The position numbers were made by a program, and so were the translations under genes. A stretch of 64,000 nucleotides of DNA from Dehalococcoidia bacterium (GTDB lineage: Bacteria > Chloroflexota > Dehalococcoidia > Plut-88900): assembly GCA_965197585.1 (NCBI GenBank), contig OZ240215.1:96001-160000 (forward strand). Reading direction: 5' to 3'. Below the pieces are notes generated by a model that saw only the letters and a program-made list of their open reading frames with translations, ran no database searches and was not told the origin of the DNA. Of this stretch, positions 3,080 to 55,694 are shown one piece after another. Numbering within the stretch: position 1 is the stretch's first letter; each line of letters begins with the position of its first letter.

Positions 3080-4270
3080 CTAGCCTTGGGCCACGGCCCC
3101 GAGGGCCGCATCCAGTATTTCGATTGCCTTGTCCGCCTCATCATCGGAAAGAATCAGGGGTGGGATGAGTCGGAGGGCATTGGGCTTTACGGGGTTTACG
3201 AGCAGGCCGCGCTCGCGGCACTCGTTGACGAGGGCGCCCGAGACATTCTCGCTGAGGGCCAGGGCAAGGAGCAGCCCGACTCCCCGCACTCCCACGGCCA
3301 GGTCGTGCTTGCCGGTCAGCCCTTCAAGGCCGGCCCGTAGCCGCTCCCCGACCCTTCGGGCATTACCAACAACGTCGTTCTCAAGGATGTAGCGCATGTT
3401 GGCTGCGCCGACCGCGGTGCCCAAGGGGTTTCCGCTGAAGGTGGAGCCGTGGTCGCCGGGTTCAAATACGGACGCCGCCTTCTTGGCCATGACTGCGCCT
3501 ATGGGGAACCCCCCACCTAGGGCCTTGGCCAGGGTAATCACGTCGGGCTCCACCCCGAAATGCTGGTAGGCGAACAGGTTGCCCGTCCTCCCGATGCCCG
3601 TCTGGACCTCGTCGAAGATAAGGAGCAGGTTCTGCTGGTCGCACCAGTCCCGGACCTGCTGGAGATACTCGCGGGAGGGGACATTGACGCCGCCCTCGCC
3701 CTGGATGGGTTCCAGCATCACTGCGCAGGTGCTCTCAGATGTGGCTGATATAACGGCTTCGATGTCGTCGAAGGGGACGTTGGTGAAGCCTTGGGGGAGG
3801 GGGGTGAAGGTGGCCTGGTGGTCGGGCTGGCCCGTGGCTGCGACCATTGCGAACGTGCGCCCGTGGAATGAGTTCATCGCCGAGATGACCTCGTAAGCTC
3901 CATTCAGGTTGACCTTGCCGTGCTTTCGGGCGATTTTTATGGCCGCTTCGTTGGCTTCCGCTCCGCTGTTTTGGAAGAACACCTCATCACAGCAGGAGTT
4001 TTCGACCAGGAGCTGGGCCAACTCTACCTGGGGAATCGTGTAGTAAAGATTGGAGACATGCCAGAGAGTCTGGCTCTGTTTCTGTAGCGCCTCGACCAAG
4101 ACAGGGTGGCAGTGCCCCAGCCCCGTGACCGCGATCCCGCCCACGAAGTCCAGGTACTCCTTCCCGTCTTCATCCCAGACCCTGACGCCCTCGCCCCTGA
4201 CCAGGGTCAAGGGCTGGCGGCGGCCCGTCTTCATAAAATACTTGGCTTCCAGCTCCTGCCAATTCACCAT
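3080..4270 (-). CDS. argD: Acetylornithine aminotransferase
   Basis: Class III PLP motifs NSGAEANEAAIK, SFHGRT, DEVQTGIGRTG, LAKALGGG; arg operon context. Confidence 0.93.
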   Translation of the reverse strand: MVNWQELEAKYFMKTGRRQPLTLVRGEGVRVWDEDGKEYLDFVGGIAVTGLGHCHPVLVEALQKQSQTLWHVSNLYYTIPQVELAQLLVENSCCDEVFFQNSGAEANEAAIKIARKHGKVNLNGAYEVISAMNSFHGRTFAMVAATGQPDHQATFTPLPQGFTNVPFDDIEAVISATSESTCAVMLEPIQGEGGVNVPSREYLQQVRDWCDQQNLLLIFDEVQTGIGRTGNLFAYQHFGVEPDVITLAKALGGGFPIGAVMAKKAASVFEPGDHGSTFSGNPLGTAVGAANMRYILENDVVGNARRVGERLRAGLEGLTGKHDLAVGVRGVGLLLALALSENVSGALVNECRERGLLVNPVKPNALRLIPPLILSDDEADKAIEILDAALGAVAQG

Positions 4271-4325
4271 ATCTTTTTCCTTTCTAAAGACCCGATAACA
4301 TTGTCATCTCGATGCCCCATATTTC

Positions 4326-4353
4326 TGTCATCCCGAGGCCCCGCGAGGGATCT
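4326..4353. repeat. REP-like palindrome family B (TGTCATCCCGAGGCYCCGCGAGGGATCT)
   Basis: Near-identical copy at 29735-29762; a related copy is split by IS481 (15371-15379 + 16441-16459). Confidence 0.75.
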
Positions 4354-4430
4354 AAGGCGCATGCAGGCGGCCCGCTTATGATTCGCTTTCCACGATATTG
4401 CCAATGGGGCCCGTGGGTTGAGGTTTCCAA

Positions 4431-4490
4431 TCCCCTCTCCCATCTAGGGAGAGGGCTAGGGTTGAAGACTCGCTGAGGCGAGTGAGGGTG
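4431..4490. repeat. REP-like palindrome family A (CCCTCTCCC-n5-GGGAGAGGG-CTAGGGTGAGGGTG) with internal insert
   Basis: Hairpin plus conserved tail. Other copies at ~12907, 12972, 14169, 16474, 18367, 21106 and 26460. Confidence 0.8.
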
Positions 4491-4518
4491 TTTCTTTTTC
4501 CTTACTAATGTCAGCTAA

Positions 4519-5310
4519 CTATTCTCCCCCGAACCACGTCCCAGGCCCCTTGCCCTCGACCGCATCCAGCAAGGCGTGCGGCCGACGCCCGTCAGTTATC
4601 ACGGCCCTTACCGACGCCTCTGAGGCTTTTAGGCAAGCCTCGACCTTGGGAATCATACCCGAGTTGATAACTCCGGATTCGATCATGTTCTGCACGTCGT
4701 CTCTCGAAAGGGAGGATGCACAGGTGCCGGTCTCGTCCAAAATCCCTTCCACGTCGGTGAGAAAAACAAGGGTTGAGACATGAATCTCGGAGGCCAGGGC
4801 GCCGGCCACGGTGTCGGCGTTGACGTTCAGGATGCCCCTCCAGTCTGCGCTGCCGTTTCGCCGTTGGGAGGCTATGGGCGACAGGACGGGGAGAAAACCG
4901 CTCTTAACAAGGGCCTCTAAAGGCGTGGGGTCCACCCCCGTGACCCGACCCACATACCCCAGCTCCGAGTCCCGCACCTCCGCCTGGATAATTCCTCCGT
5001 CCACACCGCTCAGACCGACGGCTCGACCCCCGCACCCGGCTATCGAGGCAACCAGTTCCTTATTTACGAGACCTGCCAGGACGGCCGTGGCGACTTCAAG
5101 TGCTGGACCGTCGGTGACTCGCAGCCCGCGGACGAATCGCGCCTCGACCCCGTGACGCCGCTGCCAGTCCGACACAACATTGCCGCCGCCGTGAACGACG
5201 ATAATCTCGACTCCGTCGCGCTGGAGGGCAGCCAGGTCTGAGAATAGGGTGTCGGACGCGCCGAGGGCCCCTCCCCCAATCTTGACTACTGCCTGACGCA
5301 TCCCCTTCAC
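4519..5310 (-). CDS. argB: Acetylglutamate kinase
   Basis: VVKIGG, VHGGG, GLRVTD, NVNADT, GMIPKV motifs. Confidence 0.95.
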   Translation of the reverse strand: MKGMRQAVVKIGGGALGASDTLFSDLAALQRDGVEIIVVHGGGNVVSDWQRRHGVEARFVRGLRVTDGPALEVATAVLAGLVNKELVASIAGCGGRAVGLSGVDGGIIQAEVRDSELGYVGRVTGVDPTPLEALVKSGFLPVLSPIASQRRNGSADWRGILNVNADTVAGALASEIHVSTLVFLTDVEGILDETGTCASSLSRDDVQNMIESGVINSGMIPKVEACLKASEASVRAVITDGRRPHALLDAVEGKGPGTWFGGE

Positions 5311-5322
5311 CTTGACCCGGGC

Positions 5323-6543
5323 CTAGGTAGTGTACTCGCTGTTGAAGGTGACGTACTCCTCGGAGAGGTCACACGTCCAGGCCGTCGCCGACGCTTCTCC
5401 AACATTCAAGACCAGCTTGATCGAGACCTCTTCCTGGTCCAGTGAACGAGAGACCGCGTCTTCGTAATAGGGGACGGGGGTGCCGTTGTTGAGCATGAAG
5501 ATATCGTTGATGAAGAGGTCGGTCTTCGACTCCTCGATATACGCGCCCGTCCGACCCAACGCAGCCATGAGGCGTCCCCAGTTGGGGTCGTTCCCGTGTA
5601 TCGCGCTCTTGACCAGCATAGAGGTCGATATGATTCGAGCGGCGTTACGGGCCTCATCCAGGGAGAGGGCCTTTTCGATGATGATTTCGATTATCTTGGT
5701 AGCGCCCTCACCGTCCCGTGCTATCTGCTTGGCCAGGAAGGTGCAGACCTGTTTCAGCGCCTCCGTAAAGGTCTCCCCCTCGGCCCCGTCTCCCGAGATC
5801 GGCGCATTCCCTGCCAGCCCGTTGGCCAGCACGGTGACTGTATCGCTGGTACTGGTGTCTCCATCGATGCTGATCATGTTGAAAGAGTCACCCACGGCAT
5901 TCTCAAGAGCAGTCTGTAGAAAAGCAGGATCGACCGCCGCGTCCGTAGCGATAAACGAGAGCATAGTAGCCATGTCCGGGTGTACCATTCCCGCGCCCTT
6001 GGCTATCCCCCCGACCACCGCCTGGGTCCCGCCACCCGTGTCAAAAGAGACCGCGATCTCCTTGGGGTGGGTGTCGGTGGTCATGATGGCCCGTGCCATG
6101 AACGGCCCTCCATCATCAGTGACCTCAATTTCCTCTATCCCCGCCCGTATTCGGGCCATCGGCAGCTCGACGCCTATGACGCCGGTACTGGCGATCAGCA
6201 CGTCCTCTGCCGCAACTCCGAGCTTATTCCCCGCCAACACTGACATCTCTACCGCATCGATCCGCCCCTGCTCCCCGACCGACACGTTGGCGATGCCGCT
6301 GTTTACTACAACGGCTTGAGCATATGGGTCTTTCAGGTAGTCCCTGTTGACCAGAATCGCGGGTGCCGTTACCCGGTTCTTGGTGAAGACGGCTGCAGCA
6401 GCGGCGCGGGCCTCCGAGTAGATAAGCCCGAGGTCCAGTTTGTCGACGCCGTAGGGTTTGACTCCGCAGTAAACACCGCCGGCGCTGAACCCTTTGGGGC
6501 TGGTAACGGTGCCGCCTTCAATCCGTTCTATAGAGCCTTTCAT
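5323..6543 (-). CDS. argJ: Ornithine acetyltransferase ArgJ
   Basis: ASTGVIG, IMTTDT, AKGAGMVHPDMATML, RDGEGATK, DPNWGR, TCDLSEEYV. Start at ATG 6543. Confidence 0.96.
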   Translation of the reverse strand: MKGSIERIEGGTVTSPKGFSAGGVYCGVKPYGVDKLDLGLIYSEARAAAAAVFTKNRVTAPAILVNRDYLKDPYAQAVVVNSGIANVSVGEQGRIDAVEMSVLAGNKLGVAAEDVLIASTGVIGVELPMARIRAGIEEIEVTDDGGPFMARAIMTTDTHPKEIAVSFDTGGGTQAVVGGIAKGAGMVHPDMATMLSFIATDAAVDPAFLQTALENAVGDSFNMISIDGDTSTSDTVTVLANGLAGNAPISGDGAEGETFTEALKQVCTFLAKQIARDGEGATKIIEIIIEKALSLDEARNAARIISTSMLVKSAIHGNDPNWGRLMAALGRTGAYIEESKTDLFINDIFMLNNGTPVPYYEDAVSRSLDQEEVSIKLVLNVGEASATAWTCDLSEEYVTFNSEYTT

Positions 6544-6638
6544 TGCTGCCTTTCCGTGCCTCGATCCTCCCTGGACAGGCGTCGTGAAGTATATCACTTT
6601 TGGTCTTGGAGGCATGAGACTCGGTGTTCATTGAAACG

Positions 6639-6673
6639 GGAAAAGCCGACGGGAGTATCCCGTCGGCTTTTCC
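6639..6673 (-). terminator. Intrinsic terminator hairpin
   Basis: Perfect 16-bp inverted repeat GGAAAAGCCGACGGGA-gta-TCCCGTCGGCTTTTCC downstream of the UGSC gene. Confidence 0.8.
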
Positions 6674-6715: not shown

Positions 6716-7273
6716 TTAGGACATCCTGCCGTTCGTGAGGATGTCCACAATCTGGGGCAGGGCGTCCTTGGCCCGTGCCTTCAGGTCGTCATCCGCTAGG
6801 CTGCCGATGGGGTGCTTGACCACCACAAAGGGGTAGTCAGGGAGGCCGCGGGTGCGGGCGATGGCCTGCACTCCGGGTATGAACTGGTCGCTGATTATGA
6901 CAGCGGTGGGTACGCCCCGGTCTTCGAGGGAGATCGCGTCGTGCATACAGCACGTACTGCAGGAGCCTCAGTCCCCGATCGCAATCAGGGTGGCATCCGC
7001 CTTCTCCGCTAGCTCGTCGAGTAGCTCGGGGGGTGATACGTCGGAGACGTTTGGCCTGGCGACGAACGTGACGTCGGAGATCTCATACTCCGACTTGATG
7101 AGATCGGTGACCATCCAGAGGAGCTTGTCCCCGTTGAGCCTCCGGTCATGCAAGAGCCCGATGCGCTTGCCGTTGAGGCTGTCGATCTTGGGGGCCATAT
7201 CGATGTGCTCTTCGAGCATCTCGTCGCCCCTCGGGTCTAGGGCGATCATAGTTTTCAGCATGTCGCTGACCAT
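6716..7273 (-). CDS. UGSC-family selenoprotein (185 aa, Sec at UGA 6970-6968)
   Basis: ORFs 6968..7273 and 6716..6946 are in frame, joined by GAC-TGA-GGC-TCC-TGC-AGT-ACG-TGC-TGT-ATG = D-U-G-S-C-S-T-C-C-M. The paralog at 16553..17104 has UGA at the same position. Confidence 0.9.
6938..6967 (-). promoter_or_regulatory. Putative bacterial SECIS element
   Basis: Hairpin CGTGC-TGTAT-GCACG at +14..+28 after the UGA, with GU in the loop at +20/+21. Confidence 0.65.
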
Positions 7274-7483
7274 GGGTGCCTCCTTTGCTGACGTTAGTGG
7301 AACCAGTATACCACGCAGTGTGTCAATTCAGGCTGTCATTCCAAACGAAACTTCTAGGCGCTTGATTTAGCGTACCTTAAACTAAAGGTTGAGAGTGGTC
7401 TGAGGCATCGATGTTCAGAGTTGGCTTCCAGCCACCTTCCCGGCGACTGCCCCAAGTGTAGGCGAGGAAAGCAGGGTATGTAA

Positions 7484-8206
7484 TTGAGAGCGGTTACATG
7501 GAATGTCGAGTGGGCGACCGCTAGATCACGGCGTACCCCTGAAATACTGAGACGTATTGACGGTCACGCCCCCGAAATCGTCTGTCTCACCGAGACGGAT
7601 GTAAGGTTGCTGTCTCAACGCGGGTACACCATCTGCTCAGAGCCCGACGCCGGTTACGGAATCAAGATGAGCCGGCGTAAGGTCATACTCTGGTCGCGAG
7701 AGCCTTGGGACGAAGTAGATGACGTGGGGCTCGATTCGATGCCACCGGGCCGTTTTGTGGCTGGAGTCACGCAGACTTCCTTGGGCGAAGGCACAGTCGT
7801 TGGAGTCTGCATTCCCTGGTTCGGATCCCGGACCGAGGCTAGGCGCAAGGCGGAACGCAAGGAGCGGTGGGCAGACTATGAGCAGTATCTGGTCGGTCTC
7901 ACTGAAATTCTCGGACGAGCGACTGCGAAGCGTCTGATAGTGATGGGGGACTTCAATCAAGTTATAGGAACAGGTAGCCGAGCACCTGTCGACCTGCGGT
8001 TGGCGCTTAAAGAGGCCTTCCTGCCGAGCATGAAAATCGCTACATCAGATCTTGCCTTCCAGGGCCGCAAAAGCATCGACCACATTGCTCTGAGTAATGA
8101 TTGCGCAATTGGATCCCTGGAAGTAATCAGCAACATCCACGAAGAGAGAAAACTCTCAGACCATTTCGGAATAGTCGCCGACCTGACTGCCCAGCAATTG
8201 CCTTAG
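7484..8206 (+). CDS. Endonuclease/exonuclease/phosphatase family protein
   Basis: VTWNV, VCLTE, MGDFNQ, IDHI, SDH motifs. Confidence 0.88.
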   Translation: MRAVTWNVEWATARSRRTPEILRRIDGHAPEIVCLTETDVRLLSQRGYTICSEPDAGYGIKMSRRKVILWSREPWDEVDDVGLDSMPPGRFVAGVTQTSLGEGTVVGVCIPWFGSRTEARRKAERKERWADYEQYLVGLTEILGRATAKRLIVMGDFNQVIGTGSRAPVDLRLALKEAFLPSMKIATSDLAFQGRKSIDHIALSNDCAIGSLEVISNIHEERKLSDHFGIVADLTAQQLP

Positions 8207-10782: not shown

Positions 10783-11823
10783 CTAGGGCTCTACAATCGA
10801 CTCGATAACCGACGTACTCGAATGTCCATGAGAGAATATAGGCACCATCGCCGAGACCGCACCTCCCGTACCCCCCGCCACGTACAGGTGCAATTGCTCG
10901 GGTAACGTGGGAACGGATCGCTCCTCACTGACCGGGTCTTCGAACGGTGTGACGCCGCCCAGCTCATATGCCCGCTCGGCGTCGAATACCAGCCCCGGGC
11001 TCATTTCGTTCACGCGCTCTGCTATATATTCCTTGATCTCGGCCTTTGTCATGCCCGCGGGCGCTATATTGAAAAGATGCTCGCCGCTGATGATTAACAC
11101 CAACTCGCCGTGGCAATTGATGTTCGCGGCTATGGCATGGCTGATCGTGTCCAGGATCGCCTTGGGCGAGTTGTCGGCGTAGTTGAACACCGGGATTGGG
11201 GGCAGAGCGGGGAAAAGGCTTACTGTACTCGTCGATGGATCGAAACCCTTCTCGACATGATACGGTTCCCAGATGCTGCTCTCCTCATCCTCCGCGATGC
11301 AGCAGGTGTAACGCGCCGGGCTCCCGAACGCCGACTTGTCCGTCACGCCCGGTATCTCCCCGCAAACGTTCATCAATATCAGCCGCAGCGTCCGCCCGAT
11401 AGTTGAGTTCGCCCGCCACCCGGGCCCGAACAGGTTCCACCCGGAGTTGATGTCCAGCTTCTTCCGGATGGGCCCATTCACCACGATCATCGGCGCCGAC
11501 ATTCCGGATGTCGTCTCGCTTATGCCTGAGAGGTTGAACTCCGGCTTTAGCATCGCCCTCACAGCGGCCGCAACTACCGGAGCGTACTCAGCCTTGCAGC
11601 CGGCCATTATGGCGTTGACGGCAACCTTCTGAGCGGTGACGATCCAGTTCCGGCTCTCCCGTGTCCCGAGCACCTCATCAGGCGAGAGCCCCCCGGCTTC
11701 GAGGAATGCCTGCACGGCCTCCGCGGTGGGGGGCACGACGGGCAGGCCATCAGTCAAGCCCTGTTCGAAGAAATACTCGATTGCCTGGATAGTATCGGGA
11801 AGCTCTGTGCCCTTGGTCGTCAT
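10783..11823 (-). CDS. Conserved ~346-aa 'TDGLPVVPPT' protein (UGSC-associated family), paralog 1
   Basis: Shares TDGLPVVPPT, KVAVNAIMAGCK, RANSTIGRTLRL and DKSAFG with 11833..12873 and 17134..18177. Confidence 0.85.
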   Translation of the reverse strand: MTTKGTELPDTIQAIEYFFEQGLTDGLPVVPPTAEAVQAFLEAGGLSPDEVLGTRESRNWIVTAQKVAVNAIMAGCKAEYAPVVAAAVRAMLKPEFNLSGISETTSGMSAPMIVVNGPIRKKLDINSGWNLFGPGWRANSTIGRTLRLILMNVCGEIPGVTDKSAFGSPARYTCCIAEDEESSIWEPYHVEKGFDPSTSTVSLFPALPPIPVFNYADNSPKAILDTISHAIAANINCHGELVLIISGEHLFNIAPAGMTKAEIKEYIAERVNEMSPGLVFDAERAYELGGVTPFEDPVSEERSVPTLPEQLHLYVAGGTGGAVSAMVPIFSHGHSSTSVIESIVEP

Positions 11824-11832
11824 GATCTCTTT

Positions 11833-12873
11833 CTAGGCCGCGGATACGGGTTCAAGTACGCTTTTACTCAGAACGCCCTGTCCCCACAACGGAATAATCG
11901 TGGAATGTCCGCCGCCCTCTCCACCTGCGACCAGCAGGGTAATGCCTTCAGGAGTGGTGGAAATGCCCGAGTCGTCCGGGTCATCGGTGCCCGGGTACCA
12001 GGTCCCGCCCAGCGCCCCGATCCGCTCCCGTTCGTAGGCGAACTGAGGCTGAAACTCGTTGGCTCGCTTGGCCAGGTATTCCTTGACGTCCTGCTTGCTC
12101 CATCCCGCCGGCCCGATGTTCTGCGCGTGCTCGGGGCTCATTATGAGCATTACTGGCCCGTGGCAGACCAGGTTGGCGGCGATGGTGTGGCTCAGCGTGT
12201 CGAGAATCTGCTCCGGGATCGGGTCCGACTGGTTGAACACCTCCATTGGATGACAGACAGGGAAAAGGCCCACCGCACTCGACTCAAGCGCCATCCCCCG
12301 CTCGACGTGATACGGCTCCCATGGGCTCGCTTCTTCGTTCTCAGCTATGCAGAAGGTGTACCGCCCCGGGTGCCCGAACGTCGACTTATCTGTCACACCC
12401 GGAATTTCCCTGCATACGTTCATCAGCACGAGCCTGAGAGTACGGCCGATGGTAGCGTTGGCCCGCCACCCGGGCCCGAACAGGTTCCATCCCCCGTTGA
12501 CGTTTAGTTCCTTGCGGATTGGGCCGTTCACTACGATAAGTGGCGCCGAGGTCCCTGCCGTCTCCGCGATGGCGGATGCGTTGAACTCGGGCTTCAGTAG
12601 AGCCCGTATGGACGCAAGCACAACTGGTGCGTATTCGGCCTTGCAGCCCGCCATCACAGCGTTGACCGCCACTTTCTGAGCGGTCACGACCCAGTTACGG
12701 CTCGCCCGAGTCCCTATCACCTCCCCGGGCTCCGTACCCCCAGCCTCCAAAAACGCGCCCACGGTTTCCGCCGTAGGAGGCACGACAGGGAGGCCGTCTG
12801 TCATTCCCTGCTCGTAGAAATACTCAATCGCCTCGACGGTATCCGGTAATTGAATTCCGGCGGATTCGCTCAA
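11833..12873 (-). CDS. Conserved ~346-aa 'TDGLPVVPPT' protein, paralog 2
   Basis: Same motifs; tandem with paralog 1 (9-bp gap); TTG start after GGAGG. Confidence 0.85.
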   Translation of the reverse strand: MSESAGIQLPDTVEAIEYFYEQGMTDGLPVVPPTAETVGAFLEAGGTEPGEVIGTRASRNWVVTAQKVAVNAVMAGCKAEYAPVVLASIRALLKPEFNASAIAETAGTSAPLIVVNGPIRKELNVNGGWNLFGPGWRANATIGRTLRLVLMNVCREIPGVTDKSTFGHPGRYTFCIAENEEASPWEPYHVERGMALESSAVGLFPVCHPMEVFNQSDPIPEQILDTLSHTIAANLVCHGPVMLIMSPEHAQNIGPAGWSKQDVKEYLAKRANEFQPQFAYERERIGALGGTWYPGTDDPDDSGISTTPEGITLLVAGGEGGGHSTIIPLWGQGVLSKSVLEPVSAA

Positions 12874-12906: not shown

Positions 12907-13010
12907 TCCCCTCTCCCTGGATGAGACCTTTGCGTAACCTCGATGGGAAGGGTAAGGGTCGGTGTCCTATACCCTCTCCCTTGATGGGAGAGGGCTAGGG
13001 TGAGGGTGAA
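12907..13010. repeat. Two family-A REP-like palindromes, the first holding a solo 17-bp MITE end
   Basis: GAGACCTTTGCGTAACC (12923-12939) sits in the hairpin loop; canonical copy at 12972-13010. Confidence 0.75.
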
Positions 13011-14102: not shown

Positions 14103-14168
14103 GCTTGGCGTATCTCCTTAATTGATCTCTGCATAATCCCAACAAATCGTGCTGTGGGTGGTGTCCAG

Positions 14169-14208
14169 TCCCCTCTCCCTTGATGAGAGAGGGCTAGGGT
14201 GAGGGTGA
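14169..14208. repeat. Family-A REP-like palindrome
   Basis: TCCCCTCTCCCTTGATGAGAGAGGGCTAGGGTGAGGGTGA. Confidence 0.8.
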
Positions 14209-14289
14209 TTTAAGTATTGCAACACCAGCTACTCAGATGTCTGGTGGGCATTATAGGCTTTGTCGGTTTCGGTCCGTAGACACATTGGC

Positions 14290-14979
14290 CTAGTGCGGCA
14301 TCTTCCTCGCGGCTGCCCGGTACCGGCAGAACTCGCACCTGCGGGCCGAGGGCGGAGGCTCGGGGAGGTCAAGCAAGGTGACAACTTCGCTGAGAAAGGC
14401 ATCGAACGCGGCATCGTCACGGGGCATCTCCTTCCACTCCACATTGCCGCTATAGGATATCCGGCCTTGGGCGTCCCTAACAAGCGCGTCGGGTTCCACG
14501 CAGACGAGACCAAGCCGGGTGATGGGAGAGAGGGCCAAATTGCCGGGCGCGGCGCGCTCCAGCGCATAGGCGTAGGCGTGGAGCTGCCGTGTGTAGAGAG
14601 GCAGGTGACCGCTCTGTGTAGACGTGGTCTTGAAGTCGATAATTCCGTAGCTGCCGTCCTCAAACTCCAGCACCGAGTCAAAACGCCCGCGGATAAAACA
14701 CGTGGACGCCCGGCCTGGCAGTGCAATGGGCCTGGACTCGACCCAACTCTCTCCGTACTTCACCAACCCCGGCGGCAGTGTGTCCGAAATCTCCGCATTC
14801 GGCCTGTCGTTGAAGTATTCGTTCATCAGCCGGTCGATGACGCTGAAGATACCGGGGAAAGGAGTTCGGGGTCGGTAGAAGCCTCGAGCGACCTTAAGAT
14901 AGAAGCAACGCTTGCACTCCTCCCAGAGAAAAGCGAAGTCCGAGGGGCTGAGTTTCCAACTTTTTGTCGAAGTGGTCAT
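14290..14979 (-). CDS. PD-(D/E)XK nuclease superfamily protein
   Basis: LSPS..C.RCF N-terminus, GRFD, IIDFKT, QLHAYAYAL, C-terminal CEFC. ATG 14979 overlaps the upstream TGA (ATGA). Confidence 0.85.
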   Translation of the reverse strand: MTTSTKSWKLSPSDFAFLWEECKRCFYLKVARGFYRPRTPFPGIFSVIDRLMNEYFNDRPNAEISDTLPPGLVKYGESWVESRPIALPGRASTCFIRGRFDSVLEFEDGSYGIIDFKTTSTQSGHLPLYTRQLHAYAYALERAAPGNLALSPITRLGLVCVEPDALVRDAQGRISYSGNVEWKEMPRDDAAFDAFLSEVVTLLDLPEPPPSARRCEFCRYRAAARKMPH

Positions 14980-15344
14980 AAAGTGGGAGTGGCGAACAGG
15001 GGCGCGACACCCCAATGCTCGGCAATCTTGCCCTGCTCCACGCGGATGGTGTGTACTCCGGCCGAGACGGGACTCGGGCCTCCGCCGCACTCCTCCAGAA
15101 TCAAGGCTACAATACCTTCCCGGGCCCGTAACTCCGATATAGCGTAGTCCGATCCGCTCCCAAACAGACGTCGGGAGGCCAGAGACTGCTTCAACACCTC
15201 TCGGTCGGAGGGAAGCCCCGGAGGGCCCGCGTGTTCTCTAAAATCGGCGGACACCAGATCGTCAATGAGAATCATGCAGCTTTGGTTGGCAACTTCCTCC
15301 ACCAACCGCCGCACTACCTCGCAGTCCGCCGAGGCCTTCATCAT
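14976..15344 (-). CDS. SnoaL/NTF2-like (ester cyclase-like) protein
   Basis: VVRRLVEEV.NQ...LIDDLVSADFREH...R.EQGKIAEHWG pattern; this is the real 3' part of the long 14976..16436 ORF. Confidence 0.65.
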   Translation of the reverse strand: MMKASADCEVVRRLVEEVANQSCMILIDDLVSADFREHAGPPGLPSDREVLKQSLASRRLFGSGSDYAISELRAREGIVALILEECGGGPSPVSAGVHTIRVEQGKIAEHWGVAPLFATPTL

Positions 15345-15379
15345 TTCCCTCGACAGAACCCTTTGAAGTATGTCATTCC

Positions 15380-16435
15380 TGTAAGTGTTAGGTAATTCGT
15401 TGACAGATTGGTATAAGAGGCCAACACCAATCTGGAGGCGAGAATGCGAGACAATAGCAAGGACCTCACCCTTGAACGTAACTACATTCAGAAGTGGCGG
15501 TTCCTCATCCATGAGTATCAACTGGTCAAGGCAGGGAAGCATCCCCGTTTCCGCTTCGCCCAGGACTTCTACTCCTTCCACGGCACTAGCCGTCAGACCT
15601 TTGCCAAGTACTACAACCGGTTCCTCCTCTCCCCCTCCGACAACGCCTTCCTCCCCCGTAAGCGGGGTCCCGGGTGGAAGTCCCGCCGCACCCTGCCCTA
15701 CATTGAGCAGAAGGTCATCAACGAGCGCCTTAACGGTACCAACCGTTACGAGATCTATGCCATACTCAAACCCATCCTTAAACACAACACCCCTAAGCCC
15801 TCCACCATCTACGCCATCACCAGACGCCACGGTTTCAATAGGCTCACAAAGCCGATGCAGCAGTCGAAGCGCAAGATCATCAAGACCCGGGCAGGAGAGC
15901 TGGGCCACCTGGACAGCCACTACCTCAGCCGGGATACCATCGTGGGCACCAAGCACCGCTACTACCTGGTGGGCCTCATCGACGCCTACACCCGTCTGGC
16001 CTGGGCCGAAGTGGTCGGAGACATCAAGAGTCTCTCCGTTATGTTTGCTACTCTGAAGTCCATCAATTTCCTTAACGTGGAGTACGGCATCCAATTCGAG
16101 GCCATCCTCACCGACAACGGCCCCGAGATGGCCTCCCCAAGGAACACCGAGGGCCACCCCATGGAACGGATGCTCAATGAGCTGGGCATAAAGCACCGCT
16201 ACACCCGCCCTTATAGGCCCCAGACCAACGGGAAGATAGAGCGGTTCTGGAGAACCTTGAACGAGGACCTGCTGGAGGGGACAACCTTCGAATCGGTCTC
16301 GGAACTGAAGGACGAGCTTCAGCAATACCTGATCTACTACAATACTCAGAGACCCCACCAGGCAATGGACGGAAAGACCCCTTTGGAGACCCTTAAATCC
16401 ACCTAATTCTGTCAACGAATTACCTGACATCCACA
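15380..16435 (+). mobile_element. IS481-family insertion sequence
   Basis: TGT...ACA ends, 28-bp inverted repeats (24/28 match, core AGGTAATTCGTTGACAGA), 5-bp target duplication ATTCC at 15375-15379 and 16436-16440. Confidence 0.92.
15444..16406 (+). CDS. IS481-family DDE transposase (integrase core)
   Basis: GHLD, ILTDNGPEM, HRYTRPYRPQTNGKIERFWRTL, YYNTQRPHQ. Confidence 0.95.
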   Translation: MRDNSKDLTLERNYIQKWRFLIHEYQLVKAGKHPRFRFAQDFYSFHGTSRQTFAKYYNRFLLSPSDNAFLPRKRGPGWKSRRTLPYIEQKVINERLNGTNRYEIYAILKPILKHNTPKPSTIYAITRRHGFNRLTKPMQQSKRKIIKTRAGELGHLDSHYLSRDTIVGTKHRYYLVGLIDAYTRLAWAEVVGDIKSLSVMFATLKSINFLNVEYGIQFEAILTDNGPEMASPRNTEGHPMERMLNELGIKHRYTRPYRPQTNGKIERFWRTLNEDLLEGTTFESVSELKDELQQYLIYYNTQRPHQAMDGKTPLETLKST

Positions 16436-16473
16436 ATTCCGATGCCCCGCGAGGAACCTGGGGCGGGGTCCTG

Positions 16474-16513
16474 TCCCCTCTCCCTTGACGGGAGAGGGCT
16501 AGGGTGAGGGTGA
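16474..16513. repeat. Family-A REP-like palindrome
   Basis: TCCCCTCTCCCTTGACGGGAGAGGGCTAGGGTGAGGGTGA. Confidence 0.8.
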
Positions 16514-16552
16514 TGTCCCGAAATTCACCCCGACACGGCCACCGCAGACGGC

Positions 16553-17104
16553 TTACCCTTCCACTTCCAGAATCTTTAGAATCTGGGGAACGGCCGCCTG
16601 CGCCCGAGCCTTCAGATCCGTCGGGGTCAGCCGTCCGATCGGGTGATGAATTATGACGAATGGATAATCGGGGATGCCCTGTATCTCGGCGATGGCCTTA
16701 GCCTGGTTTACAAACTCGTCCGTGATGAGCACCGCAGAGGGTACGCCCAGTTTTTCGAGCTCAATTCCGTCGTGCAAACTGCACTGAGAGCAGGAGCCTC
16801 AGTCCCCGATCGCTACTACGGCGAAATCGCTCTCCTTTGCCAGCTCGGCCACCGTGTTAACCGGCGCCGGTCGAGACGCGTCAGCCTTGCTGGAAGCCTT
16901 CACGTTCTTCAACTCGAACTGCTCACCCAGCAGGTCTCCGACCATTTCCAGAAGCTCGGTGGCGTTATGCTTGCTGTTGGATAGCAGCCCGAGAACCTTT
17001 CCTTCAAGCTTGCCGGGCCTCGGGGCCATCTCCGCCTCGGCGTGGAGGGACTGGGCCCTGGGGTCCATCACAGTGATGCCCCCGTTCTTGGTCTCGGTTG
17101 TCAT
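16553..17104 (-). CDS. UGSC-family selenoprotein (183 aa, Sec at UGA 16801-16799)
   Basis: In-frame GAC-TGA-GGC-TCC-TGC-TCT-CAG-TGC-AGT-TTG-CAC = D-U-G-S-C-S-Q-C-S-L-H joins ORFs 16799..17104 and 16553..16777; colinear with 6716..7273. Confidence 0.9.
16769..16798 (-). promoter_or_regulatory. Putative bacterial SECIS element
   Basis: Hairpin GTGCA-GTT-TGCAC at +15..+27 after the UGA; loop GU at +20/+21, the same register as in the paralog. Confidence 0.65.
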
Positions 17105-17133
17105 GGCGCGCTCCTTTCCCGTGTGTTGGGACT

Positions 17134-18177
17134 CTACATACCGGGTATTTGCTTGGTTACCGACTTGGTTCCCTTGCCGCCGCCCCAGGGCATAATCGTG
17201 CAGAAAAACCCTCCCGCCGTGCCCCCGGCCACGAGCACCATCAGGTTGTCGGGGCTTTCGACGGCAGCAACGACTTCAGAATCGTCGTGCGATCCTTCCT
17301 CGGGGTCCCAGCCCCGGTCCATGCCGCTCCAGAAGGAATAAGGGCGTTTCGTCGCTTCGAAAAGATAGTTCTTTACGTAGTCCTTGGACAACCCTTCCTC
17401 ACGAATGTGGAGCAGTACCTCAGGGCTGATTACTACCATGAGTTCCCCACCGTTCGGCATCCCGTTGGCCAGGATTCCCCCGGCCAGGGAGTTGAGAATG
17501 CCCTCGGCGGTGTGGCTGCCGTGGTCGCTGCCTTGGATGGGAGCATTCCCCGCGTAGACCGTTACCGCGCTCGATTCCAGCGCCAGCCCGCGCTCCACGT
17601 GGAGCGGAGCCCAGGGGCTGAGCTCTTCGTTTTCGGCGAAGCAGTAGCTGTACTTACCCGGGTGCCCGAACGTCGACTTGTCCAGTATCCCCGGCACCGA
17701 GCCACACACGTTCATAATGATGAGCCGGATCGCCCTGCCTATTGTGGCGTTGGACCTCTTGGTAGGGCCGAACAGGTTGTTGGCGTAGTTGATGTCCAGT
17801 TCCTTCACGATTGGCCCATGTACCAGGACCATGTGGCCCGTGCCCGCCGTGCTCGCCGAGGTTCCGTGAAGGTTGAACTTCTCTTCGCACATCGCCGAGA
17901 TGGCGGTGGCGACGACGGGCATGTATTCGGGTTTGCACCCGGCCATGATGGCGTTGATGGCCACCTTCCCGGCGGTGATCTCCCGCTTGCGGGTCGGTAT
18001 CGTGCCGAGCACGTCCCCAGGAGCCTTGCCGATTGCGTCCAGGAATCGCGTCACCATATCGGGCGTAGGAGGCACGACGGGCAGGCCGTCGGTCAACCCC
18101 TGCTCGAAATAGAACTCGATAGCCTCAACGGTATCCGGTACTTGGAAAGTCTGAGAAACTGACTCGCTTTGCGCCAT
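17134..18177 (-). CDS. Conserved ~347-aa 'TDGLPVVPPT' protein, paralog 3, operonic with a UGSC selenoprotein
   Basis: Same motifs as paralogs 1 and 2; stop is 29 bp upstream of the UGSC start. Confidence 0.85.
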   Translation of the reverse strand: MAQSESVSQTFQVPDTVEAIEFYFEQGLTDGLPVVPPTPDMVTRFLDAIGKAPGDVLGTIPTRKREITAGKVAINAIMAGCKPEYMPVVATAISAMCEEKFNLHGTSASTAGTGHMVLVHGPIVKELDINYANNLFGPTKRSNATIGRAIRLIIMNVCGSVPGILDKSTFGHPGKYSYCFAENEELSPWAPLHVERGLALESSAVTVYAGNAPIQGSDHGSHTAEGILNSLAGGILANGMPNGGELMVVISPEVLLHIREEGLSKDYVKNYLFEATKRPYSFWSGMDRGWDPEEGSHDDSEVVAAVESPDNLMVLVAGGTAGGFFCTIMPWGGGKGTKSVTKQIPGM

Positions 18178-32315: not shown

Positions 32316-32945
32316 ATGGCCCCAGACCTGTCAGTCACCATCTATTCCGACTACATATGACCTTGGTGCTACATCACGTCGGTACGGCTGGACAAGGTCA
32401 AAGATGCACTCGGCCCTCGGGTGGAGTTCCAATGGAAGAGCTATGCCCTCCTCATGGGCCGCGCCGACTCCCGCCTTGTCACACCCCACGGCAGGACCTC
32501 CCGTGCCGCGGCCGCAGAAGCTGAACCTCAGGCCCGTTTCGAGCCCTGGGCCACTGACAAGTCCTACATCTCCTCCAGTCTTCCCGCTTTGGAAGCCGCC
32601 AAGTGTGCCGCCGCCCAGGGACCCCAAGCTTTCGAGTCCTACCACCGTGCCCTGTTCCGGGCAATCTTCGTCGAGAGCATTGACGTCAGCGACTATTCGC
32701 AGCTAACGGCCCTCGCCGCCCGTGAAGGCCTGGACGCCGAGAGATTCAAAAGGGATCTGGATGGCGGTCAACAGAAAGTGGCGGTCATCGGCGAGCATCT
32801 GGAGATGGTGATGGACTACGGAGAAGCGCCGGCGGGACTGCCGCTGGTGCTCATCGAAGGTCGGGAGCCGATAGTCGGGGCCGCACCAGCCGACCTTTAC
32901 CGCAGGATATTGGAGCGAGCCATTGAGAAGCGAGGGGTGGTGTAA
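32316..32945 (+). CDS. DsbA/FrnE-like thioredoxin-fold selenoprotein (209 aa, U-P-W-C; UGA 32358-32360)
   Basis: ATG 32316 reads MAPDLSVTIYSDYI-UGA-PWCYITS, in frame with ORF 32421..32945; matches the FrnE-type SD..CPWCY motif with C replaced by U. Confidence 0.88.
32361..32397 (+). promoter_or_regulatory. Putative bacterial SECIS element
   Basis: CCTTG/CAAGG basal stem, TCA/TGG, bulged C, then GTCG-GTA-CGGC apical hairpin with GU at +22/+23. Confidence 0.65.
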
Positions 32946-43529: not shown

Positions 43530-44724
43530 GGAAGCTCTGAACAACTCACTGTAAACCAGCTTAGGTTGTCTTGCATGGAGTTTTGGGGAGAGGTTGGGTC
43601 GTAATGTTGCGTCCCGGTGGCTTATTTGCATCCTATGTTCTGGCCTGTCAGGGCATCCAGTCACCATCAACCCGGATTTGACCACACTGCTCCTCCGTCA
43701 CACCGCTAAGTGGCGCTCGGCCCTTACCAAGTTGGCCAGCCCCAGCAGCATCGCCACCCGTTGCGTGTTCTTGTACAGGCCCCTGTAGCGGACCTTGGCG
43801 TAGCCGAAGTGCCGTTTCACGTACAGGAACGGATGCTCCACCTTAGCCCTGATGGATGATTTGCTCTTCTCCGCCAAGGCCTCGCAGCTCCCCGCCCTCA
43901 GTTTCCGACGCCGTCCAGGTCTCATCGCCACCCGCCACTCCACATCCATATCCCGATTCTCCGCCCGCTTCTCCACTCCCTGATATCCCGCATCTCCCCA
44001 CACTCGCCTCTCCCCTCCATGCAGCAGCCGGTGCGCCTCCGTCACGTCATGCACGTTCGCAGCTGTCGTACTCATACTGTGCACCACCCCCGTGTCAGCG
44101 TCTGCACCAATGTGCACTTTCATACCGAAGTGCCACTCCTTCCCCTTCTTCACCTGGTGCATATCGGGGTCTCGCTCTCCAGCACGGTTCTTCGTAGACG
44201 CCGGCGCCTCGATGATGCTCGCATCCACAATCGTACCCTCCCTGAGCCTCAGTCCCCGAGACTCCAGATGACGGTTGATCTCCTCGAACAGCCCCCGACC
44301 CAACTCCTGCTCTTCCAGCAGATGGCGGAAGTTCAGTATCGTAGTCTCGTCAGGCAAGGGGCCGGACAGCCTCAGACCTGTGAACCGCCTCACCGACTCC
44401 ACCTCGTAGAGCATGTCCTCCATGCCCGGATCGCTCAGGTTGTAGAACAGCTGCACGCAGTGTATCCGCAGCATCACCGACAACTCGTAGGGCCTCCGTC
44501 CACGGCCTGCCCTGCAATAGTAGGGCCGGATTCGCTCCTCTAACTTTCCCCATGGAACCAGGTCCTCCATCCGCTCCAGAAATATCTCCCGGCGGGTCTT
44601 TCGCTTCTTGCCCTCGTATTCCAAGTCTGCAAATGTCGGCTGCTTCATCAAATCTCACCTCAGCTTTGGCCTTACTCTCCTTATCTTACTATTACCTATG
44701 CCCCTATACTTGTTCAGAGGTTTC
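43530..44724 (-). mobile_element. IS5-family (IS5 subgroup) insertion sequence, 1195 bp
   Basis: Inverted repeats GGAAGCTCTGAACAA / GAAACCTCTGAACAA; CTAG duplication at 43526-43529 and 44725-44728. Confidence 0.9.
43698..44651 (-). CDS. IS5-family transposase
   Basis: KRKTRREIFL, PDETTILNFRHLLE, VDASII, WHFGMKVHIG, GDAGY, RAKVEHPF, KVRYRGL. Confidence 0.96.
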   Translation of the reverse strand: MMKQPTFADLEYEGKKRKTRREIFLERMEDLVPWGKLEERIRPYYCRAGRGRRPYELSVMLRIHCVQLFYNLSDPGMEDMLYEVESVRRFTGLRLSGPLPDETTILNFRHLLEEQELGRGLFEEINRHLESRGLRLREGTIVDASIIEAPASTKNRAGERDPDMHQVKKGKEWHFGMKVHIGADADTGVVHSMSTTAANVHDVTEAHRLLHGGERRVWGDAGYQGVEKRAENRDMDVEWRVAMRPGRRRKLRAGSCEALAEKSKSSIRAKVEHPFLYVKRHFGYAKVRYRGLYKNTQRVAMLLGLANLVRAERHLAV

Positions 44725-55480: not shown

Positions 55481-55694
55481 CTAATTTCCGAAGCGGAAGA
55501 GTTTTGCGGCGGTTGAGTATACGAACTTAGTCTGCTCGTCTGCCGGAATATCTTTCAGGATCTCGCCCAGGACCTGCTGGGAACGGGGCCAGGTCGACTC
55601 TCTGTGGGGATAGTCGGAGCCCCACATGATGTTGTCGACGCCAATCAAGTCTCGGTGGGTCATTCCGATGAGGTCCTCGGTGAAGTTTACAAAC
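55481..55694 (-). pseudogene. C-terminal remnant of an amidohydrolase-family gene, cut by IS30
   Basis: FVNFTED..G...RDLIGVDNIMWGSDYPHRESTWPRS...TAAKLF. Confidence 0.85.

Follow-up and report, generated by a model that had tools for sequence, protein, structure and literature searches.

The UGSC family of selenoproteins has been known since about 2007. In glycine and D-proline reductases, the selenoprotein B subunits attack the bound substrate directly. In the GOS survey, Table 2 counts 255 Sec and 21 Cys sequences of UGSC, and the survey's passages on the family rank it among the most abundant aquatic selenoprotein families, regard it as a probable thioredoxin-like redox protein and note its fusion to an unnamed domain, 'Unknown_1' (PMC2398784). 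Where PMC13188914 deals with the family, its function is still given as uncharacterised. Here, we describe a UGSC gene (UGSC-1) in a 64,000-nt stretch of a Dehalococcoidia genome, referred to as the window, together with a family of partner proteins that we infer to be 'Unknown_1'.

The ORF list contained UGSC-1 as two pieces in the same frame, one of 101 aa that runs to a TGA (6968..7273, minus strand) and one of 76 aa (6716..6946, minus strand). The TGA at 6970-6968 is the sole interruption of a frame of 185 codons, and the read-through product has U102 in the context ...AIGD-U-G-S-C-S-T-C-C-M-H-D... A single PF24696 match (E 6.6e-54, 183.1 bits against a cut-off of 25) covers residues 12-180 of this product (profile positions 3-171 of 172), across the TGA, and GC3 is 0.78 on the 5' side of the TGA and 0.83 on the 3' side. 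As one Pfam match spans the TGA and GC3 is similar on both sides, UGSC-1 is one gene and not two. The read-through product also scored 142.1 bits against NF041046 (curated cut-off 125), and its identity is thus that of a UGSC-containing protein (NF041046, PF24696), an already named family that the first-pass annotation of this DNA had missed. That annotation had otherwise described the gene well: a 185-aa gene cut in two by the ORF track, a UGA that opens a UxxC motif with a Cys-rich stretch and a hairpin behind it, a terminator of its own and no adjacent partner gene were all found again here (Table 1). The terminator-like hairpin folds at -28.6 kcal/mol (z -4.7), and none of 200 shuffled sequences was equally stable; it was not listed by a pattern scan of the minus strand for promoters and terminators. 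The single promoter-like match from the pattern scan falls within the coding start. UGSC-1 is a separate transcription unit, flanked by an ArgJ gene (5323-6615, minus strand) and a gene of the endonuclease/exonuclease/phosphatase family (7484-8206, plus strand). No partner-family gene adjoins it on the same strand, the nearest, partner A, being 3.5 kb and four genes away. For annotation, the 101-aa and 76-aa fragments should be joined as one selenoprotein gene, a routine correction that is also due for 16553-17104 and for a DsbA-like gene at 32316-32945.

Table 1. Features of the UGSC and partner genes in the window.
Feature	Position	Strand	Description	Basis
UGSC-1	6716..7273	minus	Probable 185-residue UGSC-family selenoprotein gene; ATG 7273-7271, stop TAA 6718-6716	Read-through translation
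In-frame TGA	6968..6970	minus	Candidate Sec U102, first residue of U-G-S-C	Homologue alignment
SECIS-like stem-loop of UGSC-1	6925..6970	minus	Lower stem UGAG/CUCG takes in the UGA	Folds
Core hairpin of UGSC-1	6935-6961	minus	Upper stem CGUGC/GCACG (5 bp), apical loop UGUAU	
Shine-Dalgarno-like AAGGAGG	7279..7285	minus	5 nt 5' of the UGSC-1 ATG	Read from sequence
Intrinsic-terminator-like hairpin	6640..6672	minus	15-bp stem, loop UAC, then U-rich tract	
Partner paralogue A	10783..11823	minus	346 aa, unnamed family, candidate large subunit	AF2 pLDDT 85.3, pTM 0.86
Partner paralogue B	11833..12873	minus	346 aa, 9 nt upstream of A, same strand	
UGSC-2	16553..17104	minus	183 residues, TGA 16801-16799; 29 nt past partner C	PF24696 E 3.5e-55
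Partner paralogue C	17134..18177	minus	347 aa, directly upstream of UGSC-2	ORF list, member of alignment A2

If the TGA encodes Sec, as the first-pass annotation had proposed, homologues with Cys at this position should exist, and they do. In an alignment of 40 UGSC sequences (38 natural Cys forms and the two TGA-containing copies from the window; alignment A3), the column is Cys in 38/38 Cys forms and TGA in both window paralogues, and G100, D101, C/U102, G103, S104, C105 and S106 are invariant in 40/40. Among 19 database homologues, four are full-length proteins with DCGSCS and 14 are stubs of 101 aa (59-95% identical). As these stubs are 101 aa long and align across all 101 residues, they stop exactly at the TGA codon. 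The family cut-offs, the Cys column, the stubs that end there, the stem-loop and two further TGA-interrupted genes (see below) all support the selenoprotein reading, and to judge from the sequence, UGSC-1 is very probably a genuine Sec-encoding UGSC gene. Since the family was already known, it is a new member rather than a new kind. UGSC-1 matches the family over its full length and has U-G-S-C at the family's conserved position, where Sec and Cys forms alternate; nothing sets it apart as a copy. Its peculiarities are local, namely an extra Cys pair behind the motif (C108, C109) and the detachment of its partner gene.

We then compared the stem-loop with the published bSECIS model, which specifies a loop of 3-9 nt, an upper stem of 4-16 bp, a G in loop positions 1-2, a distance of 16-37 nt from the UGA and an MFE of at most -7.5 kcal/mol (PMC13188914, Fig. 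2 legend). The UGSC-1 stem-loop satisfies these rules on loop, stem, spacing, G and MFE, as its 28-nt core folds at -11.0 kcal/mol and its loop starts 18 nt past the UGA. In UGSC-2, the UGA is followed by the hairpin GUGCA-GUU-UGCAC, whose 25-nt core has a folding energy of -6.2 kcal/mol; only together with its lower stem (-13.5) does it pass the threshold. The consensus fold of the two genes contains 12 pairs, one of them compensatory, and identical residues share identical codons in 11 of 13 cases within residues 100-118 versus 35 of 67 outside this segment (one-sided Fisher p 0.028). When the folds were compared with shuffled sequences, 21/200 shuffles were as stable as the UGSC-1 core (z -1.5) and 3/200 as stable as its 50-nt fold (z -2.1); for UGSC-2, these numbers were 25/200 for the core (z -1.2) and 59/200 for 50 nt (z -0.5). 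Stability above that of shuffled sequence is thus absent in three of these four folds. The SECIS-like hairpin of the first-pass annotation is present and obeys the bSECIS constraints; in folding energy, it does not stand out. As the scan of the genome collection was built on a Cys-codon pattern and returned Cys forms alone (428 loci confirmed), conservation of the element rests on two paralogues of one genome.

Going by what is established about Sec decoding in bacteria, the stem-loop, which begins with the UGA, would recruit SelB and tRNA-Sec, and these would read the codon as Sec. The apical loop of this element contains GU and starts 18 nt past the codon. Across the whole window, no Rfam family was matched at gathering thresholds and ARAGORN found no tRNA and no tRNA-Sec; selA, selB, selD and tRNA-Sec were looked for within these 64 kb and none was found. 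As Sec machinery genes are absent from the window, Sec decoding in this organism is deduced from three interrupted genes only. One of these is UGSC-2, which is 46% identical to UGSC-1 and has its TGA at the homologous codon. The third is a DsbA-like gene with U-P-W-C (32316-32945), which scores 34 bits against PF01323 as called and 70 bits on read-through. A scan for coding sequence that flanks a TGA returned 20 candidates, among which the two UGSC genes alone had family support; by their coordinates, the remaining candidates are antisense to called genes or at gene boundaries. The pattern TGAGGNWSNTGY occurs eight times in the window versus one expected, and lies in long frames only at 6959-6970 and 16790-16801. 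A third match that truly codes for U-G-S-C, at 2189, was discarded (18-codon frame), as were the other five, which encode other residues.

Two alternatives to Sec decoding have to be weighed against these observations. An organism-wide genetic code in which TGA stands for a standard amino acid could account for three in-frame TGAs per 64 kb. However, TGA is the ordinary stop of 15 of the 58 called ORFs, which means that the code is not reassigned; in addition, the TGA-flanking scan gave family support to the two UGSC genes only, and each of the three in-frame TGAs corresponds to a redox-active Cys in the alignments. A reassigned code is therefore hardly credible. It is also very improbable that the TGA is a real stop and UGSC-1 a pseudogene, a sequencing error or a pair of small genes. 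Gene callers do split UGSC-1, databases list its relatives as proteins of 101 aa and the window shows no Sec machinery, but the same TGA codon occurs in two paralogues that are only 46% identical and, by inference, in the 14 relatives at 59-95% identity. The frame on the 3' side of the TGA is fully conserved, with its GC3 of 0.83, and one family match runs across the codon. A separate 3' piece would have no ribosome-binding site and would lose the invariant motif. Moreover, UGSC is on record as a selenoprotein family, as the 255 Sec and 21 Cys sequences of the survey illustrate (PMC2398784).

As described above, UGSC-1 has no adjacent partner. In 79 of 80 Cys-form loci of other genomes, UGSC is adjoined on the same strand by a member of an unnamed family of about 350 aa (gaps of 8-268 nt), and in the lone exception the contig ends 127 nt past UGSC. 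This partner family comprises 6879 representative clusters at E <= 0.001 and has an invariant Cys in an A-G-C motif. In the window, partners A and B are 63% identical, and the identity of C to either of them, assessed via homologues in common, is 43-46%. Partners A (10783-11823) and B (11833-12873) had been noted to lack a UGSC neighbour, which is correct, whereas partner C ends 29 nt upstream of UGSC-2 and forms a contiguous module with it (16553-18177). Two other ORFs that were considered as partners proved unrelated: one of 354 aa (17098-18162, plus strand), an antisense shadow of partner C, and one of 486 aa (14979-16436). Searches of Pfam and NCBIfam with partner A gave no match, and none of 48 partner-family members had a consistent match to a named family, PrdA and GrdE included. 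The Pfam and NCBIfam models for pyruvoyl proproteins of the PrdA/GrdE type matched none of these 48 members at E <= 1. In the ESM Atlas, the partner matched unnamed clusters only, and no usable named match was left once UGSC-bearing clusters had been set aside.

The two families are also joined in natural fusions, which occur in either order. One of these, P0151, is 40% identical to partner A (E 3e-63). Among 50 long partner-family representatives that were scanned, 34 contained PF24696, whole or partial; 22 of the 34 start just past the Sec position and three end in ...GD just before it. Such ends are expected if gene callers cut Sec-containing fusions. In the same set of 50, an AhpC/Redoxin domain occurs in two representatives and a ferredoxin:thioredoxin reductase beta domain in another two. 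As one of these four (P0266) also has a partial UGSC domain, three long representatives have another thiol-redox module instead of UGSC. Partner proteins are fused to each other as well, with seven natural two-domain proteins of 709-741 aa among the best 150 family representatives. A further UGSC-partner fusion ORF, at locus L045, was rejected as an artefact of ORF calling: its partner match spans residues 48-264 only and the linker looks out of frame.

The AF2 model of UGSC (pLDDT 89.7) consists of five beta-alpha units, and its best PDB matches are flavodoxins, FMN reductases and lumazine synthase (TMq up to 0.49). This model points to a flavodoxin-like alpha/beta fold; a thioredoxin fold around UxxC/CxxC was not found in it. 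The model would place U102 at the N-terminus of a helix, straight past a beta-strand, and C105 one turn further on, a geometry that would suit a redox-active selenol/thiol pair cycling via a selenenylsulfide. For the partner, Foldseek returned nothing from the PDB at E <= 0.001, and its best match, a class I fumarate hydratase chain (E 4.1e-3, TMq 0.31), was judged uninformative. The natural Cys-form UGSC-partner pair of an actinobacterial locus (L010) was predicted to form a complex with a score of 0.82, a value reached by 116/157 solved complexes and 2/215 mismatched pairs, a comparison that is rough only since own alignments were used; the best of three controls scored 0.01. Contacts agreed between runs at 87% or more, and the pLDDT of the partner chain was at least 89. 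As profile searches of PDB sequences returned no relative of UGSC or the partner, the model had no solved relative to copy. The predicted interface takes in residues 96-98, the C-G-S of C-G-S-C, and the contact residues listed for this model do not include the invariant partner Cys. The first-pass annotation had assumed a partner family for UGSC, and its existence is strongly borne out by the linkage in 79/80 loci, the natural fusions and this predicted complex.

How does this pair compare with described selenoprotein systems? Like PrdB, GrdB, GrdF and GrdH, UGSC appears as a small UxxC Sec subunit in a tight complex with a larger, substrate-binding subunit that is encoded alongside. There is also weak, recurrent similarity over the Sec region: 29 of 40 UGSC members, in a hand count over the member rows listed, have sub-threshold matches to the GrdB, PrdB, GrdF, GrdH or TIGR01918 models (best E 4.7e-5). 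The curated cut-offs are far above these scores (17.3 versus 300 bits for TIGR04483 and 11.9 versus 602 bits for TIGR01917). Unlike in those systems, the sequence of the large subunit shows no relation to PrdA and GrdE, the pyruvoyl proteins. The hosts of UGSC are Chloroflexota and Actinomycetota rather than amino-acid-fermenting clostridia, its loci are bordered by catabolic genes of an aerobic type (alcohol dehydrogenases, SDRs, ABC transporters), and Cys forms are common in the family. With the UxxC selenoproteins of the thioredoxin fold (Trx-like, Prx-like, DsbA-like), UGSC shares a UxxC at a helix N-terminus and the exchange of Sec and Cys among homologues, and in the fusions of the partner with a Prx-like module, that module appears to replace UGSC. 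In contrast to these proteins, UGSC is modelled as a five-stranded parallel beta-alpha-beta sandwich and has an obligate genomic link to one partner family. The AF2 model also departs from the thioredoxin-like guess in the survey's passages on the family (PMC2398784), being flavodoxin-like instead.

In view of the linkage in 79 of 80 loci, the fusions, the modelled interface and the swaps with other thiol-redox domains, UGSC is most likely a dedicated selenol/thiol redox subunit. Comparative genomics suggests that UGSC would be the small redox subunit of an enzyme, and not a free-standing redoxin, with a member of the ~350-aa partner family as the large subunit. The Sec motif would be placed in the subunit interface, where Sec would either reduce the catalytic centre of the large subunit or attack a bound substrate directly. 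In the window, partner C and UGSC-2 would form a complete, contiguous module, and UGSC-1, with its own ribosome-binding site and terminator, would most likely serve the tandem partners B and A. We consider this explanation, taken as a whole, likely. Of its parts, a role of UGSC-1 as a subunit alongside the partner family is on balance probable.

Two other readings of UGSC-1 deserve attention, as each explains part of the data. UGSC-1 might be a free-standing, general thiol/selenol oxidoreductase without a dedicated tie to A and B, which would leave partner C and UGSC-2 as the only true module. Its own ribosome-binding site and terminator and its unrelated flanks (arginine biosynthesis, nuclease family) fit this, as do the survey's description of a probable thioredoxin-like redox protein (PMC2398784) and the presence of two UGSC genes versus three partner genes in the window, a stoichiometry that is not 1:1. 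We nevertheless regard it as quite improbable, because the linkage is nearly absolute across the family, UGSC and partner are fused in both orders, relatives have UGSC-1-type genes beside A/B-type partners and the modelled fold is flavodoxin-like rather than thioredoxin-like. The two-domain partner fusions (7 of the best 150) also speak against it, since they suggest that a single UGSC could serve A and B jointly. Alternatively, UGSC could be the catalytic nucleophile of a reductive cleavage of the glycine/D-proline reductase type, with Sec attacking a carbon of the substrate that the large subunit holds. The recurrent sub-threshold similarity to GrdB, PrdB, GrdF and GrdH in 29/40 members argues for this, as does the match of UGSC-1 residues 78-163 to positions 124-201 of the PrdB profile, a segment that would hold the PrdB Sec (U151 in C. 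difficile, as given in PMC11229817). The architecture of a large and a small Sec subunit is also the same, with Sec modelled in the interface. However, the partner does not resemble PrdA or GrdE, the pyruvoyl subunits, and its fusions to peroxiredoxin-like and FTR-beta-like domains better fit a replaceable electron donor. Cys forms, moreover, are very common in UGSC (the 428 confirmed loci), whereas the U151C variant of PrdB is described as inactive (PMC11229817). A nucleophile of this type thus seems unlikely, and the dedicated redox subunit remains our preferred reading.

A more far-reaching version of the preferred reading, which we put forward tentatively and would not expect to hold in full, is that UGSC and its partner constitute a class of two-subunit reductases, dependent on selenol/thiol, that has not been described before. 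The small subunit would then be distant kin of protein B of glycine and D-proline reductase and the catalytic large subunit would be new, while the enzyme would be widespread in aerobic Chloroflexota and Actinomycetota. The A-G-C cysteine of the partner and Sec might form one active site across the interface, and tandem A/B with a detached UGSC-1 might represent a heteromeric variant. For the function of UGSC, the redox subunit of a two-part enzyme is a concrete, experimentally testable hypothesis, based on near-obligate linkage, fusions in both orders, the interchange of redox modules and a confident interface model with Sec at the contact. The Cys-form modules of culturable actinobacteria are tractable systems in which to find the substrate.

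Whether A and B are the cognate partners of UGSC-1 is evenly balanced in our judgement, and the support for it is indirect, coming from metagenome assemblies of related Dehalococcoidia. In one of these, a partner gene (V3U90_00315) and a UGSC-1-type stub (V3U90_00320) have consecutive locus tags. In another, V3U26_00205 and V3U26_00210 are an A-like and a B-like gene in direct succession. A UGSC-1-type stub (67% identical) lies on a contig of 2932 nt, the same size as the contig of V3U26_00205 and V3U26_00210, which is circumstantial. Coincidences of contig size, of a circumstantial nature, were seen at both 2932 nt and 1955 nt.

Reading through the in-frame TGA at 6970-6968 joins two ORFs into one gene, UGSC-1, whose 185-residue product carries the candidate selenocysteine U102 in the context ...L-I-A-I-G-D-U-G-S-C-S-T-C-C-M-H-D.... 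The first-pass annotation had described just such a split gene with a U-G-S-C-x-x-C-C motif. The read-through product gave one PF24696 (Pfam) match across the TGA (E 6.6e-54) and 142.1 bits against NCBIfam NF041046 (curated cut-off 125), and these profiles assign the predicted protein, over its full length, to the UGSC (seleno)protein family. In the sequence, AAGGAGG is found 5 nt ahead of the ATG. A 15-bp hairpin with a U-rich tract lies 44 nt past the TAA; it was absent from the list of a simple pattern scan, and folding (-28.6 kcal/mol, z -4.7; none of 200 shuffles was equally stable) confirmed the claim that the gene has its own terminator. As had also been stated, UGSC-1 has no adjacent partner gene: its neighbours are unrelated, namely ArgJ downstream and an endonuclease/exonuclease/phosphatase-family gene upstream on the opposite strand. 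The arginine-biosynthesis cluster directly past the terminator appears unrelated to UGSC-1.

Coordinates and main characteristics of features in the window
Feature	Position	Strand	Remarks
UGSC-1 5' ORF	6968-7273	-	101 aa, terminates in TGA 6970-6968
UGSC-1 3' ORF	6716-6946	-	76 aa, same frame as the 5' ORF
Arginine-biosynthesis cluster	3080-6615	-	ArgJ, amino-acid kinase (ArgB-like), class III aminotransferase (ArgD-like)
Partners A and B	10783-12873	-	346 aa each, 63% identical
UGSC-2	16553-17104	-	46% identical to UGSC-1, TGA 16801-16799 at homologous codon, PF24696 E 3.5e-55
Partner C	17134-18177	-	third relative of A/B, ends 29 nt ahead of UGSC-2
DsbA-like candidate selenoprotein	32316-32945	+	TGA 32358-32360, Y-I-U-P-W-C motif
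REP-like ~54-nt intergenic repeat	12957-13010, 14156-14209, 16461-16514; also 4434-4454		copies 87-100% identical
682-aa ORF	61507-63555	-	ABC-transporter permease matches (BPD_transp_1 and its N-terminal domain)
Mobile-element genes	43698-44651, 55527-56684, 57454-58635	-	DDE transposase, rve-type integrase with HTH domains, phage-type tyrosine integrase

A 40-sequence UGSC alignment bore out the expectation of homologues with Cys at the UGA position: all 38 Cys-form homologues have Cys in the TGA column, and G-D-C/U-G-S-C-S is invariant. Database homologues of UGSC-1 numbered 19 at E <= 0.001 among 170 candidates. Fourteen, at 59-95% identity, are exactly 101 aa long and align along their entire length, which indicates that they are stubs stopping at the UGSC-1 TGA codon; four are full length with D-C-G-S-C-S, and one, of 161 aa, diverges from the family sequence just ahead of the motif. 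The TGA codon is not reassigned, as it stops 15 of the 58 called ORFs. A scan for TGAs flanked by coding sequence gave 20 candidates, with family support only for the two UGSC genes. When the DsbA-like candidate was read through, its PF01323 score rose from 34.1 to 70.1 bits and profile coverage from positions 78-189 to 2-189 of 191; the 60 nt past its UGA folded no better than shuffles (z 0.06). This TGA-interrupted gene supports probable selenocysteine use in the source organism. UGSC-1 is, on this sequence evidence, very probably a genuine selenocysteine-encoding UGSC gene, and was rightly spotted. As the family itself has been known since about 2007 and is now under curated models, UGSC-1 adds one member rather than a new family.

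In both paralogues the UGA lies within a stem-loop with a lower stem UGAG/CUCG, an upper stem GUGC/GCAC and an apical loop (UGUAU in UGSC-1, AGUUU or GUU in UGSC-2) that contains GU. The consensus, drawn from these two genes of one genome, comprises 12 pairs, one of them compensatory; the outside loci were collected by Cys-codon pattern and are Cys forms only. The bacterial SECIS model, as outlined in PMC13188914 (Fig. 2 legend), has a loop of 3-9 nt and an upper stem of 4-16 bp; the same source places a G within the first two loop positions and sets a distance of 16-37 nt from the UGA and an MFE <= -7.5 kcal/mol. The SECIS-like hairpin annotated past the UGSC-1 UGA falls within all of these published limits (spacing 18 nt, -11.0 kcal/mol). 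The UGSC-2 core has -6.2 kcal/mol alone and reaches the MFE threshold only with the lower stem (-13.5). Fold energies are undistinguished from those of shuffles in both UGSC-1 (z -1.5 and -2.1) and UGSC-2 (z -1.2 and -0.5). Within residues 100-118, codons are identical at 11 of the 13 residues shared by the paralogues, versus 35 of 67 elsewhere (p 0.028), a modest nucleotide-level signal near the UGA. Around the UGA, the two genes, only 57% nucleotide-identical overall, share an unbroken 18-nt stretch, GGGGACTGAGGCTCCTGC (6953-6976 and 16784-16807, minus strand), which takes in all synonymous positions.

UGSC-2 and partner C form a complete contiguous module (16553-18177, minus strand). The plus-strand ORF at 17098-18162, favoured by longest-ORF choice, was rejected as an antisense shadow of partner C. 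Partners A, B and C had zero matches in Pfam and NCBIfam, and any one family of either database matched at most 4 of 48 partner-family members (E <= 1); judged by these profile searches, the partner family is without a Pfam or NCBIfam model. At E <= 0.001 it comprises 2605 of 8000 scored proteins and 6879 representative clusters; the 120 proteins listed have no Pfam domain, and the named ones are called hypothetical. Among 80 loci with Cys-form UGSC, mostly from Actinomycetota, a same-strand partner gene adjoins UGSC in 79: 78 have it downstream, across gaps of 8-268 nt, and 3 upstream. The single locus without one ends 127 nt past UGSC. The other genes nearby vary and are of catabolic types: zinc alcohol dehydrogenases (34/80), SDRs (27/80), ABC transporter parts (25/80), amidohydrolase_2/PaaX (19/80), IclR regulators (14/80) and aldehyde dehydrogenases (12/80).

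The two families also occur in one chain. P0151 (561 aa) begins with a UGSC domain of the Cys form and continues into a partner domain that shares 40% identity with partner A (E 3e-63). We scanned 50 representatives longer than one partner domain (410-741 aa), taken from the 150 best partner-family matches. Nine have an N-terminal UGSC domain, complete in eight and without the first 28 profile positions in one. Another 22 start with only the portion of the UGSC profile past the Sec position, the gene-caller product expected from a Sec-containing fusion, and three have the reverse order and terminate in ...G-D just ahead of that position. An AhpC/Redoxin domain replaces UGSC in two, and a ferredoxin:thioredoxin reductase (FTR) beta domain is present in two, one of which, P0266, also has a UGSC piece and is counted among the 22. 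Fusions to peroxiredoxin-like (AhpC/Redoxin) or FTR-beta-like domains were seen in P0223, P0251, P0262 and P0266. Thirteen of the 50 are without any known domain. Seven of the 150 best representatives (P0153, P0157, P0158, P0163, P0165, P0166 and P0239; 709-741 aa) consist of two complete partner domains fused in tandem, resembling the adjacent B-A pair of the window joined in one chain. A 2008 GOS survey describes UGSC fused to an unnamed domain, 'Unknown_1' (PMC2398784); we infer that this domain may be the partner family.

The UGSC-1 model (pLDDT 89.7, pTM 0.83) is a five-fold beta-alpha sandwich in which U102 opens helix 103-118, straight past strand 94-98. The PDB structures that it matches best are flavodoxin-like (TMq up to 0.49), unlike the thioredoxin fold proposed for the family in the 2008 account (PMC2398784). 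The partner model (pLDDT 85.3, pTM 0.86) had no match among PDB structures at E <= 0.001. A complex modelled on a natural Cys-form UGSC/partner pair (locus L010), relatives of the window proteins, scored 0.82, versus 0.01 for the best of three controls. Of 157 solved complexes 116 attain this mark, and of 215 mismatched pairs 2 do, figures that are approximate here because the alignments were our own. Runs share at least 87% of contacts, with a partner-chain pLDDT of at least 89. UGSC contributes to the interface its residues 96-98, which are the motif's C-G-S and correspond to U102-S104 in UGSC-1, together with 101-102, 105 and a conserved N-terminal stretch, 1-13. The partner contributes the invariant or nearly invariant N70, G100, S104, T105, N152, G155 and Q163 (partner A numbering); the invariant C76 (A-G-C) is outside the listed contacts, and residues 69-70 and 73 are inside. 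The modelling supports a putative binding of UGSC to the partner protein.

This evidence agrees with UGSC being a dedicated redox subunit of the partner enzyme, on which it would dock its U-x-x-C pair as a selenol/thiol centre. That peroxiredoxin-like and FTR-beta-like modules swap with UGSC points to a need of the partner for a thiol-type reductant. More specifically, the Sec could act as nucleophile in catalysis, the role it has in PrdB and GrdB, the selenoprotein B subunits of D-proline and glycine reductases. In support, sub-threshold matches to selenoprotein B models occur in 29 of the 40 UGSC members listed (best E 4.7e-5), and the matched region would include the PrdB Sec, U151 in C. 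difficile (PMC11229817). However, these scores are far under the cut-offs, the partner family shows no similarity to the pyruvoyl subunits PrdA and GrdE, and Cys forms of UGSC are abundant; we regard a catalytic Sec as rather unlikely. The redox-subunit reading offers, as a by-product, a testable functional hypothesis for the UGSC family and its large unnamed partner family.

In the window, four intervening genes separate UGSC-1 from partners A and B, which it had been proposed to serve. Among related Dehalococcoidia assemblies, one has a partner gene next in locus-tag order to a UGSC-1-type stub (V3U90_00315 and V3U90_00320), and another an A-like (69%) next to a B-like (70%) gene (V3U26_00205 and V3U26_00210). 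The contig of the latter two is 2932 nt long, as is that of a stub 67% identical to UGSC-1 and 42% to UGSC-2; a 1955-nt contig is likewise recorded for a UGSC-1-type stub (79%) and for an A-type partner (71%). These records favour, circumstantially, the proposed pairing of UGSC-1 with A and B.

The REP-like repeat carries the inverted repeat CCTCTCCC-N5-GGGAGAGG, with three exact matches in a pattern search versus 0 expected. Its copies are found in the intervals that separate minus-strand genes, and one lies just past the UGSC-2 stop. All three mobile-element genes are in the second half of the window, and no tRNA gene that might serve as an attachment site was found within it. The 682-aa ORF has a BNR/YCF48-like beta-propeller match between its permease matches, an unusual insertion for a permease.
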